Shown piece after piece: positions 7,200 to 50,800 of a stretch of 64,000 bases of DNA. This DNA comes from Phyllobates terribilis. Its lineage: Eukaryota. Below the pieces are notes generated by a model. It was not told where the DNA came from. It searched no databases and saw only the letters and a program-made list of their open reading frames with translations. How positions within the stretch are numbered: position 1 is the first letter of the stretch; each line of letters starts with the position of its first letter. The position numbers and the translations under genes were made by a program. The stretch lies in NCBI RefSeq assembly GCF_046119375.1, contig NW_027362767.1, positions 416,330,001 through 416,394,000 on the forward strand, written 5' to 3'.

Positions 7200-8661
7200 A
7201 GATATTCCCATCTCCAAGATCCTATCCCAAAATGTAGTAGGAGTCATAACAATATTAGCAAATATCTCCAACTAGAAAAAGTAGTCTAGTTCTTCCAATT
7301 TGCTACATCACTTACCCATTGTGCAGGGCATTGCAGTAGCTTAGGTATTCATGGTTTTTTTTTTAATTCGTTTATTAAAGGGGTTGTCCACTACTTTCAA
7401 TTGATTGGGAGGCGGATGTGCAGTACACCGCGGCGGACACTACCACTTGACGGCGGAGACCCGCAGGGGAGTACTTCTGGCTGGCGGCCGCTGCCAGCAC
7501 CTATAACAGTTGATATGTGGGGGTGCGCACGTGCGGGACCCTGACCGATCATACATTGATGCCCTACCCTACGGATAGGGCATCAATGTAAAAAAGTAGT
7601 GGGACGAATTCCAGAGATCCCAGATCTTATTAAATTTCTCCGAACATCCTCTATTCTGATAAACCGTTCGCTCATATGGTGTGACTGAACTGACCAGTTC
7701 AATCCAGGATCTAAGAGATGGTGGGAATTACCCATCCAGTGTAGAGCTAGTCATTTCCTGGCTAAGAAGATGGTTTCCCTTAGGAAAATTTTAGTATGAT
7801 GTCCCAACCACTCTTCCTCCAGAACACCAAATAATCCAATTAACGGGTCATGGGGAATTGGAATAGATAATAGGGAAGATAGTAGTGAAGTAATCTCATT
7901 CCAAAAAGAAAGAATAGTTGGGCATTGCCCCACCATGTGTATAAAGTCCGCGTCAGATGCAAGACACCTCAAACATTACGAGGTCTGGGATCGCCCCATC
8001 CTAAATAACCTCAATGGGGTTAAATATGATGGATGTATAATGTACAACTGGATCGTTTTGTTATTAGCAGACTGAGAAACGTTGGTTGAAGACTCCAAAA
8101 TCTCTTCCCAGGCCTCATCCTGAATGCTATGAATAAGAAGCTTCCATTTTTGTTTTACCCAACAGGGGAGTAGATTCAACACCTATGGATAACATATGTA
8201 TATAAAAGTGGAGATGAAGCCCTGTGGATCTTGTGATTTGAGTGTCCCTATTAAAGGGAAAGATGATATTAACTTGATGGTGCCCATATTTTGTAAGTGA
8301 GATAGAGTTGCTGTTCTAAGTTGGAGGTATGGAAAAAAATTGGGACCTTGGAATTCCATAGTTGTTTTGTAATTGTTCAAAAGGAAATTAGGACGTTTTG
8401 TTCGTATATGTCATATATTATGTGATATCCAAAACTGAGCGGATGGCTGGTTTAACTTAGATATTTATGGTTACGGCCAGTAACAACTAATGGTCACTAT
8501 ATGAGTAGTTGGAACCATGAATACCTAAGCTACTGCAATGCCCTGCACATGGGGTAAGTGACATAGCGAATGAGAAGAACTATACTACATTTCTAATTGG
8601 AGGCATTTGCTAATATTATTATACATATTGGGATAGGATCTTGGAGATGGGAATACCCCTT
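7200..8661. mobile_element. T2/Kolobok-type palindromic MITE split by an L1 insertion
   Basis: Halves 7200-7355 and about 8468-8661 match the intact copy at 46884-47240. The right end is GAGATGGGAATACCCCTT. Confidence 0.8.
7355..8467 (-). mobile_element. L1-type LINE 3' fragment
   Basis: ORF2 C-terminal pieces (DADFIHMVGQCPTILSFW...IFLRETIFLARK), poly-A tail (T-run at 7355) and a probable TSD ATGGTT. A small MITE at about 7378-7605 is nested inside. Confidence 0.8.
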
Positions 8662-24359: not shown

Positions 24360-24959
24360 CCACGATGGCCCCCGGTCTCCTTCTCCGATGCGTCCGGTGT
24401 CTTGGGCCGCTCGCGGTGGTGTAAAAGGACCTTCCATGACGTCATTTAGTCATGTGACAGGTCCCGTGACCTGTCACATGACTAAATGACGTCATGGAAG
24501 ATCCTTTTACACCATCGCGAGCCACCGGGGAGCTAGGACGCACCAGAGAGAAGACCGCAGGCCATCAGAAGGTGAGTATAATGTTTATTTTTTTATTTTA
24601 AATTCTTTTCTTTTTTAACAGGTTCTACGGTACCCGGGTCTGGATGAGAGTCTCCTCTTCTCCAGACCCAGGTACCATCCGCACATTGAATCGCTTAATA
24701 TCCGCATGTACACATGTAGTCATGCGGATATTATGCCATTCAATGCAAGTCAATGGCGGCAATTACGCCGCATTTCCGCAAAAATAATGGACATGCTGCA
24801 GATTTTTCTGCAATGATAATCCACAGCGGAAATATCCGCAGCATGTGCACAGCACATGAGGATTATCATTGGGCACCATGGGGCACGTGCTACCAAGCGT
24901 TTTCGCTGCGGAAATTCCGCGGCAAAAACACTTGAAAAATGCATAGTGGGCACGCAGCC
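24360..24959. mobile_element. Partial copy of the Harbinger-like MITE family also seen at 45460-46797
   Basis: Shares GACGTCATTTAGTCATGTGACAGG and GGTACCCGGGTC blocks and the right terminus TGGGCACGCAGCC|TAA. Confidence 0.65.
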
Positions 24960-25136
24960 TAAATCTCACGATCCTCGGAGAGGAGAGTGCCGCAGTCCTT
25001 GAGACTAATATTACTGCAGAAGAGATAATGGAAGCGGCCAGAGGAATGGCGCGAGGGAAGTTTCCGGGACAGAGATGAACTCCCTCTGAAAGTCTAAGAT
25101 ATTTAGACCAACTGGCCCCTCATCTTCTTTAAGTTT

Positions 25137-44867: not shown

Positions 44868-47800
44868 ATGGCGGCCTCCTTGGTCAGGATGTGTGTGTGC
44901 GGTGTGAGAGGAGCGCTCCGGAGCCGGGTAATTAGCTGATGGCGGATTAGAGGAGCAGGGCGATGTATTGGGTGATGAATGTCTTGTAACTGTGTGTCCT
45001 CCCCGCAGGCGGCGCTGCCCCCCGGGGTCCGCACACTGTGTAGCCCCCCAGAGGAGTTTGACCTGGGGTCTCGTTATAAGGAGCATCCCTGGGAATACCT
45101 GAGCAGCGAAGGTAACAGCCCCAGTCTGCTATTGCTCTCTGTTATCAGTCTCACTACTAGGGCAGATGCTGACTGTGTTTGGCCTCTTTAGGTCATGCGA
45201 CTCTCTATCTACAGGGGAACTACAACCCCCAGCATGTCCTGACACCCTGCAGCGGTGTAGCATAGGTTGTCAGCGCCCGGGACCAGTATCTTCTGCCTTT
45301 CCCCTCGTTTGCAGGACAATAATTATGTTTTTTATTCTTTTATCTTCTCATCGTTTTCAGCTTTTTTTTTTGCTGAAATTTGACCTACAATTTAAAAAAG
45401 TCATATTGTTTTACTTTTTCTTTTTTTTTCCATGTAATTATTTTTTATACTAACCCTATGGCTATGTGCCCCCGATGCTGAAATGATCCGGATTTTTCCT
45501 GAGCGTTTCTGCATCTCCCTGGCAGAAAAAACGCATGCGGATTGCACATTCGTTTTTCCTGCCAGGGACAAGCGGATGTGAAGCGTTCTTCACATGCATT
45601 TCCGCATGCGGGTTGACAAGCGCTTTCCAAGTGATTTTAGCATCACTTGGAAAGTGCTTGACAACTTGGTCACACTATATAAATCCAGCCGGCATGGCTT
45701 TATATAGTGTGACCGAAAGAATGGTAAAAAATAAATCTATACTTACCTTCCGATGGCCTCCGGAGTCTTGATTCGATGCGTCTCGGCTTGCCGGCAGCTT
45801 GCGGTACACTGAAGGACCTGCCGACGTCAGCATCACGTGACCTGTCACATGACTAAATGACGTCAGCGCTGATCCTTCAGTCCACTGCGATCTGCCGGCA
45901 AGCAGACACAAGGACATCGGAGGCCATCAGAAGATAAATATAATATTTATTTTTTATTTTATTCTTTTTTTTACAGGTTCTATGGTACCCGGGTCCGGAG
46001 GAGAGTCTCCTCTCCTCCAGACCCGGGTACCATCTGCACATTGATGCGCATTCCATGCGTTTGTACAGATCCAGTCATGCGGATTCCATGCCTTCCAATG
46101 CAAGTCAATGGAGGCGAAAACGCAGCGCTTCCGCAAAATAATTGGTAGTGCTGCGTTTTTTTCCGCAATGATAATCTTCAGCGGAAATTTCCGCAGCATG
46201 TGCACAGCACATGCGGATTATCATTGAGGACAAAAAATAAAATAAATTCAGCTCACCTGGTTCTCACATGCTCCTGGTGCAGGGAAGCCTGGTAACGTGT
46301 GGTCTCACGTAGTAGAAACAATATAAATGTAAGAAGAAACTGGCTTCCAGGAATATAAAAATTTCCCCCCAATTTTTTTCTTTTTTTTATTGATAGAAAA
46401 GTAGTTCAGATCAGTTCAGGTAATGAGATAAAAATTCAATGGATAAATCACATCATAGACCAGCTACGCGTTTCGAGCATGATACTATGCTCTTTGTCAA
46501 AGCTCTGACAAAGAGCATAGTATCATGCTCGAAACGCGTAGCTGGATCCTATGATGTGATTTATCCATTGAATTTTTATCTCATTACCTGAACTGATCTG
46601 AACTACTTTTCTATCAATAAAAAAACAGAAAAAAATTGGGGGGAAATTTTTATATTCCTGGAAGCCAGTTTCTTCTTACATTTATATTGTATCATTGAGG
46701 ACCATGGCAGGCCTTCTACCATGCGTTTTTTAAGCGTTTCTGCAGCGGAATTGCCGCTGCAAAAACGCTTAAAAAAATGCATCGTGGGCACACAGCCTTA
46801 GGGCTAGAGATGGGAGAATCAATTAACGGGACTCTGCTCCACCAGCCGGGTCAGTGATCTGTGAGCTCTCTGGTTCTCCTTAAAGGGGTATTCATTCCCA
46901 TTTCCAAGATCCTATCCCAATATGTAGTAGGTGTAATAATAATATTAGCAAATACCTCCAATTAGCAATGTAGTATAGTTCTTCTGATTCGCTATGTCAC
47001 TTACCCCGTGTGCAGGCATTGCAGTACCTTGGGTATCCATGGTTACGACCACTGATATACTGACAGCTAGTTGCTAGTGGTTGTAACCATGAATACCTAA
47101 GGTCCTGCAATGCCCTGCACACGGGGTAAGTGACATAGCGGAATCAGAACTGTACTACATTGCTAATTGGAGGTATTTGCTAATATTATTACACCTGCTA
47201 CATATTGGGGTAAGATCTTGGAGATGGGATTACCCCTTTTAACTCCCCCCGGCTCTTTTTTTTGGCAGGAGCGACGTCATCATAGCGGCATCATTCACAC
47301 ACAATCAGTCAGAAATCTGTGGCCGCTGGACAGAAGTCCCGCATGCCTTTTTTTCACTATCGGCATCCACATGTCTTCTGATTAGCCGGCCTGGTGCAAC
47401 ATCATCATTGCTTCCAGACATTGTGCTGTACCGACTAATCAGAAGAAGAGCCGCACTGAAGACGGAGGATTGCAGGGCTGCCCTCCTGCGGCCACAGATC
47501 ACCAATATGGCCATCAGACCGTGGGCCTCCAAATGTATAGAGTCTTCTCTAGTTCTGACCCATCTTGATCTGAATGATTAAGAACCACCAAAAGAATTGA
47601 TGAGCTGTGGTTGTTTTTATTACTTTTTTTTAAAAACACGCATCGTAGGTAAAATGAGAAATTCAAAGTTAAAAACTATGTTCCCGGCCAACATTTCTGT
47701 TACTGAAAAATGATGCTGTTTTCCCACAAGTAAAAACCCCAAAAAAGCTGTGTGTGAACAAGCCCTTATGCTAGTTGGGGTGGGAATAGGTGTATAAAAG

Positions 47801-50800
47801 CATAACACTTCTGTCTCGTTTGCGTGATTCCTTGGGTAGAGAGGAGTTTGTCACTATCTGTCAAAGAAAATATTAAAAATCTCTGAAGTCCCTCATATCT
47901 ACCCTTCCCTCCCTTTTCCTGACACACAGAGTGCAGCACCACGCAACAGCTGACAGGTTTAAGTCTCTTAGATGTGAACCATCTTAGTTAAAATGCATGA
48001 AGTTCTTTTGATGCCCAGATGACTGAAAGAAGATGCCTTTTGTGAGAAAGACAAAGGGATTGCAAATGGGAGAACTCTTTTCAAAGAGTTGGACAATAAA
48101 AGGGTACATGTGTTTATGCTTATGCAGGGCAGTGGAAAAAACGTTTGTCCTCAGGAAATACATTGTCCTTTCAAGAGATGTATTTTACATTTACACTAGA
48201 CACCCTTGTCCCTGCAAGAGAAGTGTTGCACCTGCAACAGATTTGAGGTCTCCGAAAGGAAATGTTGAATATCGAAATTTGTATAAATCCGATTGTGAGG
48301 AGACGTATATTTTTAGTGGCAGGGCTAACAGGAGAAGAAGACGCATAATTTTTCAGAACTGTAACCCCTGCCTGTGAGCCACAAATCCACAGTGACCAGA
48401 TCACTGACAACAGCTATGCCATGTTTACTATCTGTGGAAAGGTAAAATCCCGATGGAAAATATGGCTGCAATCTTGAACTTCTGTGACCATCAGGAGGGA
48501 AGTTATCGCAGAACTTGGGATTTCGTAAAATCCTGAATGGCTGGGGACAGCCTACAACCCTGCCCACGTGAGGTCATCGTGGGGGGTGTGTGGTTGGACC
48601 TCAGGTGCTGATAAAAGATCAAGCCGAATTATGATCTGGGTTCCTGTAGAGCAGGGGTGGGGAACCTGAAGGCTGAGGGCCATTTATGGCGCTCGATGAT
48701 CTTTCATCAGGTTCCTGGGGACCACAGTGCTTGGGCCGGCAGCTGTGTTTTGATGGCCACAGGCCTTTTTATTTCTTCTTGCTCTGTGAGAACGCAGATG
48801 CAATGTTCACTACTGAATGCTGAGGCGCGAGCAATTAAAGATTACGTCCTGACACCAGTGCCAGCATCAAGACGTACTTTGTGGGCTGAGTTAGCGCATA
48901 ATTTGTACGGCCCCCGAATGATGGTATAAATATCCAAATGGCCCTTGGTAGAAGGAAGGTTCCCCACCCCTGCTGTAGAGAGAGACATTTTGGTGTATGC
49001 ATGATTCCCGTCCGCTGGACGTTCTTCAAACAAAGCGCTGTCCTTCGCTAGGCCGAATCATATCTGTGATCGGTATAGTAAACTCTTTTGTTAATCCCTT
49101 TTTATCTTCTGTAACTGTATACGCTGTATTGTTTTATCCCCTTTGTAAAATCTTTTGTATAGTTTTCATAAACGCTGGTTCCCTTTTAGATTAAATATAA
49201 AATATAATAGCTCTGTAACCACGCCTCAAAGCCATATGTGACCTGTATAAACGATTAGTGGTGGCAGCGAGTAGTCTTGTGTTATTGTGGAGTTAGCGTT
49301 GGTCCGATACGGAGGTACATACACAGATTCCATGTGTTGGAATCCGGAGGTGTATATACCATACGCTCACTGTTAGTTTTCCAATAACCGGCATGTTAGT
49401 GCAAACAGCCTGCGGCCTCCTCCGTTAGTCGTCGGCCAATCGTGTAATTATCCGCACGATAGGGGGCAGCAGAGAGCTCTTGGCTCCAAAGATCACAGCG
49501 GGTGGTTCAATGTGACCTTCCCAGGGTGTGATATTTATGGATAAAACCTTGACACTGCCCGGGCGGAGCGCAGCAACCGAGATGAGAGCTTTGACATCTC
49601 CACAGTCGTCCCACATCCTCGTTCGCTATACCACTGGCTCTAGGACATGCTGGGAGTTGTAGTTTTGCACGCCCTGTGACATTTCCGCAGCTTTGCGTTT
49701 TATCATTTCTCCCCCCCCTCTCTAGAGTACTTGGAGCGTTATGGACAGAGATCTGTGTGGACCGGTTACAGAAGAAATCACAAAGGACCAATCCCACCAC
49801 AAAAAACACGGAAAACCTGCATTGTGAGTGATTGGGGGCCTGGAATGACTAAGTGTTTTTACCTATAAAGGGGGGTGTAATAATTAGAGAACATCTGTCC
49901 GTCCGGTGCTTGAGGTTTCGCTCTACGAGAGCACGACATTCAGATGTGAATGCAGTTTGCTCTTAAAGAGAACCTGTCCCCAATCTGGGGCTGCCCCAAG
50001 AGCCTTGGACGCTGTCGGGTAAGAGGCAGCTCTCATCCAGACATGGCCTATAAACAACGTGGCTGCTCAGCAGCACCACTCTTGTGTATAGGTCATGTCT
50101 GGTATTGCTACACGCGGTGCAGTAACCACTTCGTATTTTCTTACAGAGAGGAGGTAAAGTTTGCGGCAATCCCTGCCCTATCTGCCGGGATCAAAGCCTC
50201 GGTGTGGATTACCGAGTGAGTATCCTCCGATGGCTGCGGTGAGCTCTCTGCCGGTCCAGCCCAGGCTGATAATTGTCATTTTCTTTGTTTCCGCAGAACG
50301 TGAAGTTACTGCAGCAGTTTATCTGTCCGCACACGGGAGTCGTGTATGACCCGACCAGAACAGGTTTGTCTTGTGCAGGCGGCTCGGGACGTAGGCGGAC
50401 GCCCATAACTTATGTATTTATCTCCTAGGTGTGTGCATGAAGCAACACAAGCGGCTCGTGAAGGCCATAACCGAGGCCGAGGACCATGGTGAGATGAGGA
50501 TTCATCAGAAACTGTGTGGCCACCACTCGTAGTCATATAGTGACTGCAGACTAAAGCCTGGACAACCCCTTTAAATAATATTTTGAGATGTTTGAAATTG
50601 CACAGGGCAATATCTCACCCCCTCCTCATCCGCAGGTCTCCTGCCATTAATGATACATCACAAGGACATCACCTTCGGAGACTACTCCCGGACACACAGT
50701 GCGGTGGCACAGACGCCTCCGGCCCCGGAGGGCCCCTGGTATTCCTGGTACGAGTGGCAAGAGCCGTCCGCAAAGGACGTCGCCAAACTGCAGAAGCTGT

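Follow-up and report, generated by a model that had tools for sequence, protein, structure and literature searches.

How did a near-perfect palindrome with two hammerhead-like motifs come to lie within a target duplication in an intron of MRPS18B, and from what kind of element was it derived? The locus lies in a window of 64,000 nt of Phyllobates terribilis DNA, the whole stretch that was analysed. A 13-bp direct repeat (46219-46231 and 46690-46702), exact and with no third occurrence in the 64,000-nt window, encloses an insert of 458 bp (46232-46689), as described in an earlier note made from the sequence alone. The near-perfect palindrome with ~185-bp arms given there was likewise recovered: the arms (46319-46502 and 46503-46689) are 97% identical, meet at 46502/46503 without a spacer and differ by a substitution at 46505, beside the centre, a 2-nt deletion and a 1-nt indel. 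Each arm carries the AATAAA already noted (46616, plus strand; 46391, minus strand). The ~86-bp sequence termed a leader is present at 46232-46318, but it is the 3' tail of an element whose sense is the minus strand. The insert is an ordinary Penelope-like element (PLE) footprint, with two ribozyme-bearing ends joined head to head in an intron. Its features are as follows.

45112-49725, plus strand: MRPS18B intron 2, placed by the flanking exons; the host gene strand is opposite to the element sense
45902-46798: MITE-like host repeat of high copy number, interrupted by the insert, with a paralogue at ~24544-24960 (sequence)
46219-46231, plus strand: left copy of the 13-bp target duplication (repeat search; empty-site form in short-read contigs of the host MITE)
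46232-46318, minus strand: 3' tail of the element, between two recurring ends (comparison with long copies)
46259-46252, minus strand: conserved donor-like CAG/GTGAG inside the tail, a putative splice site
46319-46504, minus strand: sense pseudo-LTR (pLTR) arm, first base the A of AGCT (46504), matching the 3' pLTR of copies with RT and GIY-YIG, e.g. L035
46462-46504, minus strand: minimal type I hammerhead, core U3-A8, U3 at 46500, 3-bp stem I, predicted cut after 46465 (sequence)
46501-46504: AGCT, the 4-nt overlap of the inversion joint, centre 46502/46503, identical in sibling copies
46501-46543, plus strand: hammerhead motif of the inverted arm, C3 (46505) opposite A8 being a mismatch, predicted cut after 46540 (sequence)
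46501-46689, plus strand: inverted pLTR arm, outer end at the second recurring site, AATAAA at 46616 (sequence)
46690-46702, plus strand: right copy of the target duplication (repeat search)

The placement in MRPS18B intron 2 claimed by the earlier note follows from two downstream exons that match mitoribosomal S18b (49728-49823 and 50147-50215, E 4e-13 and 8e-8) and from exons 1 (44868-44927) and 2 (45009-45111), read by eye. The paralogue of the host MITE contains the target site once, also as claimed, with 11 of 13 bases identical. The joint expected of an empty site (46218>46690) was present in three of four short-read runs; given a summed depth of ~1 million for the host MITE, this joint is unassignable to the locus. 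The single site in the paralogue and the joined empty form in short-read contigs thus identify the repeat as a true target duplication. Directly after the host MITE lies a second palindromic MITE-like repeat, unrelated to it (46894-47230), with copies at 7204, 8558, 38466, 39009 and 58847 of the window.

Parent element and hammerhead motif

At least 98 matches to the insert were found in the P. terribilis genome (10.6 Gb). In all of them the tail lies at one end and terminates in the same T-rich run, and longer copies extend beyond the palindrome centre on the minus-strand reading. The sequence of L035 leads upstream into RT and GIY-YIG frames separated by a CX2-5CxxC linker; an inverted partial pLTR, the tail and a duplication of 15 bp are present in this copy too. 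In L083, RT and GIY-YIG share a single frame of 607 aa, in which the GIY-YIG match (E 6.8e-6) is above the Pfam cut-off; the RT matches fall below it (E 5e-4 and 4e-3, the latter being the RVT_1 of L083). Protein homologues with RT domains are amphibian. In L077 and three further copies (91-93% identity over the whole query), the tail continues into the 5' region and the ORF; here and in L035, the pLTR that follows one ORF is also the one that leads into the ORF of the next unit. These continuations establish the minus strand as element sense, the arm as pLTR and the supposed leader as 3' tail.

The genome search suggested in the earlier note, for further copies and for an autonomous PLE with the same pLTR, thus returned multiple relatives, including RT- and GIY-YIG-bearing ones, and the Penelope-like origin proposed there stands. 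The insert almost certainly consists of the pLTR and ~86-nt tail of a GIY-YIG (EN+) PLE. This element may be termed Neptune-like on the basis of its vertebrate host and the CX2-5CxxC linker, which is found in the L035 frame and in sister families and, in the accessible text of Craig 2021 (PMC8557442), is common to Neptune and Nematis. No intact ORF of the focal subfamily was observed in the 13 long loci scanned, the longest open frame being 607 aa, and the genome search gives a lower bound. A search of solved structures with the RT-EN frame gave no match. The donor-like CAG/GTGAG is kept in the tails of two families, as judged from sequence. The focal copy is fairly young and holds no RT or endonuclease sequence, in agreement with the earlier note; with neither TATA box nor ORF, it is likely a dead end. 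Elsewhere, at least 17 spaced copies of one 5'-truncated fragment of an older subfamily lie on one strand at G000:C8:280.2-281.7 Mb, probably as a segmental array.

AGCT, the extra U, U3, A8 and GAAACGCG are all shared by two sister families (64 and 49% aa identity), whose stem II is altered by compensatory pairs and whose flanks differ. The family at 64% has open frames of 849 aa. Sister PLE families with open frames of 849-867 aa are represented by L135 (G000:C4:373424200-373434100), L137, L138 and L139. In L135, two near full-length units lie head to head; as they are 99.5% identical, the sister family is probably young.

The hammerhead-like layout reported earlier, with a predicted cut after A46540, is present in the sequence; the reading of its core as decayed (G8>A and an extra U, with C3>U in the minus copy) does not hold. 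An alignable core was found in 67 of 83 distinct arms, and was U3-A8 in 60, C3-A8 in three, A3-A8 in three and U3-G8 in one, with no C3-G8. On these counts A8, the extra U and U3 are evidently family traits rather than decay, and the C3 of the plus arm a derived base. All three C3-A8 arms, the focal plus arm included, lie at inversion joints. The ranking of the two focal arms is therefore reversed: the minus arm is the family type, and the apparent CUGA of the plus arm is a mismatch at the joint, without a 3-8 Watson-Crick pair. Scoring copies for an intact CUGANGA, which the earlier note had proposed as a means of refutation, would wrongly reject the hammerhead idea, since none of the 67 arms is C3-G8. 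U3-A8 is described as natural covariation in PLE hammerheads in the available text of Cervera 2014 (PMC4209133).

The focal motif also has an extra A between positions 9 and 10.1 that the first reading missed. In a comparison of three families, two of the six stem II pairs differ in a compensatory manner between the focal and sister family, the loop differs and ACGCGT is kept. The scan with hammerhead models proposed earlier was made against Rfam at E values up to 10 and gave no hammerhead match, only miRNA-type hairpins far below gathering scores. Cleavage by the two arms as a dimer, as had been suggested, is not expected, given that they lie on opposite strands and one transcript would contain a ribozyme and its antisense. 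When two native copies of the motif were co-folded (L027 was used, with an altered stem I), no hammerhead dimer was obtained; the minimum-energy fold pairs stem II intermolecularly, which, with the stem I of L027 altered, does not count against a dimer. By sequence conservation the hammerhead motif is real and kept in the family, as a putative self-cleaving ribozyme.

The joint CTCTGAC occurs at two unrelated loci (46505 in the window and L099:~437; 2 of 83 arms). It corresponds to a sense-strand G just before AGCT, seen also in L005 and L026, which a copied cap may explain rather than a point mutation. At L033:~770-830, directly beside the copy is a hammerhead-like motif that belongs to another repeat and lies on the opposite strand.

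Insertion ends and formation of the mirror

The ends of the family were surveyed in all 56 exact matches to a 27-nt tail motif, a choice that avoids selection for 5' extent. These represent 55 distinct contexts, two near-identical loci being collapsed and one locus with tails on both arms counted twice. In the coordinates used, position 1 is the C of AGCT and the predicted ribozyme cut is at 38/39. Two recurring 3' ends, ~87 nt apart, were observed: tails end at 279 or a few bases past it, and 30 of 37 inverted arms terminate at 181-199. Of these 30 copies, 28 are flanked by a duplication of at least 12 bp (at most one mismatch). Such a duplication was found in 2 of 18 copies that lack an inverted arm, in none of seven inverted in other ways and in 1 of 600 controls with mismatched flanks; where the duplication is exact, it mostly measures 13-15 bp. 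Three of the 18 copies that lack an inverted arm begin where the element would naturally continue, and deletion or misplaced boundaries may account for the absent duplications in this class.

At the other end, the interval from -10 to +12 of AGCT contains the ends of 22 of 55 sense arms and of 22 of 37 inverted arms (binomial p 6e-11 for this hotspot, indicative only because the uniform null is crude). Starts at 31-45, the region of the predicted cut, were seen in only 3 of 55 sense arms. All three families have a TATA-like box beginning 29-33 nt upstream of the A of AGCT, from which a transcription start at AGCT is inferred. Given that many arms end at AGCT, upstream of the cut, the RNA template was likely uncleaved. 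In the sister family, 3' ends ~90 nt apart were found (12/30 and 15/30 loci), 5' ends lie at AGCT in 3 of 30 loci and extend more than 60 nt upstream in 25 of 30, and mirrors with the focal type of joint number three among the first 100 of 134 matches.

Single loci show other junctions. In L011:1680-1760 (G000:C2:194196463-194196945), pLTR 1-38 lies beyond the joint and ends exactly at the predicted cut, followed by pLTR from position 4; a template jump to a 5' fragment left by cleavage may explain this single instance. L108 (G000:C4:580703700-580706000) has its mirror joint at 38-41, a second AGCT spanning the predicted cut, where cleavage and microhomology are indistinguishable. In L009 (G000:C7:257555918-257556464), each arm of the mirror has a tail and one flank is an inverted copy of the other, so that the whole looks like a larger inverted duplication.

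The arms of two-armed copies were compared at nine marker columns, four of which represent one 4-nt indel; one CpG column and the end columns had been dropped. Pairs were taken from 33 chosen loci, with arms longer than 150 nt only, and L015 and L089 yielded none. In 17 two-armed copies with nine marker haplotypes, arms agree at 150 of 151 comparisons (shuffled pairs, mean 53%, with 0 of 5000 shuffles reaching 150/151), and the sole disagreement is a small deletion of the focal copy itself. This agreement across nine haplotypes indicates that mirrors arose on many occasions, each time from a single source, although conversion between arms may have contributed to it.

The same data bear on whether the palindrome is itself a non-autonomous element, moving as a unit in the manner of a SINE, MITE or retrozyme. 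About a dozen copies of similar size with the same joint are among the top matches, as such an element would produce. However, mirrors exist in nine haplotypes with the arms of each copy matching each other, outer ends and joints vary among copies, arm-specific shared variants with fixed ends are absent, the TATA-like box lies outside the copy and no head-to-tail array is present. Mobility as a unit is thus largely refuted and highly improbable, and the earlier description of a non-autonomous derivative gives way to a palindrome remade at each insertion, with no separate family. That the palindrome is an artefact of assembly from fold-back long reads can be discounted almost entirely. Neither outer junction is bridged by a short-read contig; nevertheless, one contig matches perfectly across the centre (46475-46534; 28 and 32 nt to either side, slightly short of the 31-nt rule), and the exact two-sided duplication, the differing arms, the one-sided tail and the recurrence of this layout at many loci speak against an artefact.

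The focal insert is quite probably a short EN+ PLE copy, comprising pLTR, tail and inverted pLTR in a 13-bp duplication, formed by what were likely two reverse transcriptions from one staggered cut. The endonuclease would nick both strands ~13 bp apart, the two nicks priming respectively at the end of the tail and at that of the pLTR, on unspliced, uncleaved RNA from one source element. Both cDNAs would run off the RNA 5' end at AGCU, the likely transcription start 29-33 nt below the TATA-like box, and their self-complementary ends would anneal before fill-in. The focal joint is identical in L002, L009, L012, L015 and L025, and in the sister-family copies L173 and L174; the 4-nt AGCT overlap of the focal copy and the first five fits such annealing of two cDNA ends. 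The anole PLE protein, in the accessible text of Frangieh 2024 (PMC11167929), acts on both strands by nicking and extension, begins at two internal sites that delimit the tail and takes uncleaved RNA as its template, and by analogy the proposed two-primer insertion agrees with these results.

The main alternative is that a single cDNA or antisense template primed itself at a short palindrome and was then resolved by the endonuclease, leaving the tail on one side, as proposed in Arkhipova 2013 (PMC3846280, available text). The marker agreement of the arms is as expected from this course, as are a rare variant on both arms in four copies besides the divergent L088 and the location of joints on short palindromes, AGCT or, in L103 and L113, TTCCTGGAA. 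Against it, a zero-loop hairpin of 4 nt is impossible within one strand. The inverted arm also carries sequence absent from the sense arm in L082 (1.8 kb), L064, L096 and L109, and sense arms stop at AGCT even without a full mirror in L093, L028, L033, L026 and L110. Self-priming is accordingly rather unlikely. Two-primer insertion on uncleaved RNA is favoured by the association of the duplication with the inverted arm (28/30 versus 2/18) and by arms ending above the cut, and taken alone is somewhat the better bet. Against it, the 5' hotspot is weak in the sister family, arm agreement fits fold-back or arm-to-arm conversion equally, and L102, L104, L117 and L099 keep the joint without part of one arm, which later deletion of a fold-back product also explains. 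Proof of two templates would have been a copy whose arms belong to different subfamilies; none was found among the two-armed copies compared. No statement of a two-primer, AGCU-annealing model was found in the literature searched, on which subscription papers, figures and supplements (Xenopus hammerhead families, anole insertion ends) may bear.

Host effects and relation to known elements

The long double-stranded hairpin foreseen by the earlier note in the pre-mRNA was obtained as a fold prediction (about -320 kcal/mol); a fold in which stems I and II of one motif are enforced is less favourable by ~60 kcal/mol. Both hammerhead motifs are thus predicted to be trapped in a ~185-bp hairpin of the host pre-mRNA. 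An effect of the insert on MRPS18B, by ribozyme cleavage of pre-mRNA, premature polyadenylation at AATAAA 46616 or supply of double-stranded RNA, could be imagined, given that the plus arm is in the host-gene sense with a hammerhead-like motif and AATAAA and that a long hairpin is predicted. It is nonetheless improbable: the plus motif combines the C3-A8 mismatch with a stem I of 3 bp, transcription reaches its antisense copy first, the folding cost must be met, and PLE minimal hammerheads are described as weak even as dimers (PMC4209133, available text).

In the parts of the literature accessible here, the layout of inverted pLTR, tail and duplication, including head-to-head joint palindromes, has been described in Arkhipova 2013 (PMC3846280) and Craig 2021 (PMC8557442). 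Pen2a and Pen3a of Adineta vaga (PMC3846280) likewise have an inverted, shorter pLTR adjoining the direct one, a head-to-head joint palindrome, a one-sided tail, a target duplication and a TATA-like box in the pLTR. By contrast, the focal insert has no ORF between the repeats, its tail is ~86 rather than 31 nt, and duplications in its family are mostly 13-15 rather than 8-10 bp. The metazoan PLE minimal type I hammerheads of PMC4209133 share with the focal motif a long stem II, the extra base between 9 and 10.1, G10.1-C11.1, a palindromic loop 3, U3-A8 covariation and opposite-strand pairs, there 100-700 bp apart; the extra U between stem I and position 3 is absent from the description available, and the two focal motifs share bases at the joint. 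Poseidon PAc of Anolis carolinensis (PMC11167929) is alike in having two internal start sites that bound the tail and an uncleaved RNA template. The focal sites, known here from genome sequence, instead lie ~87 nt apart in the 5' untranslated region and presumed intron, and the focal-family protein has the CX2-5CxxC linker of Neptune and Nematis.

Non-LTR retrozymes (Li, Clavereau, Pollet 2026, bioRxiv 10.64898/2026.07.22.740005) are, in the text available, also non-coding, related to pLTRs, equipped with type I hammerheads and found in amphibian genomes. They are head-to-tail tandem units, whereas the focal insert is a single head-to-head pair with duplication and tail; with one inverted pair and no head-to-tail tandem hammerhead units, its identity as a retrozyme was rejected. 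By the sequence comparisons made, it belongs with EN+ Penelope-like insertions.

The locus itself is ordinary, one of dozens of dead-end copies with a layout already published. The present analysis contributes a corrected reading of the core, the identity of the parent family, counts in favour of one insertion model and an intact sister family in which it could be tested. Whole vertebrate PLE families whose cores are U3-A8 escape any scan for CUGANGA. The formation of PLE mirrors and tails is debated between self-priming and other models, for which the family census is more useful than the locus and is of modest mechanistic value. More speculatively, and with the chances against it, PLEs may insert by default with two RNAs and two primers at the tail ends, AGCU serving as a built-in sticky end and the palindromic hammerhead loop as a means of pairing RNAs rather than cutting them. 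If true, such insertion would explain the tail, the mirror, the duplication and the conservation of weak hammerheads, and the intact sister family in the same genome makes this idea testable.
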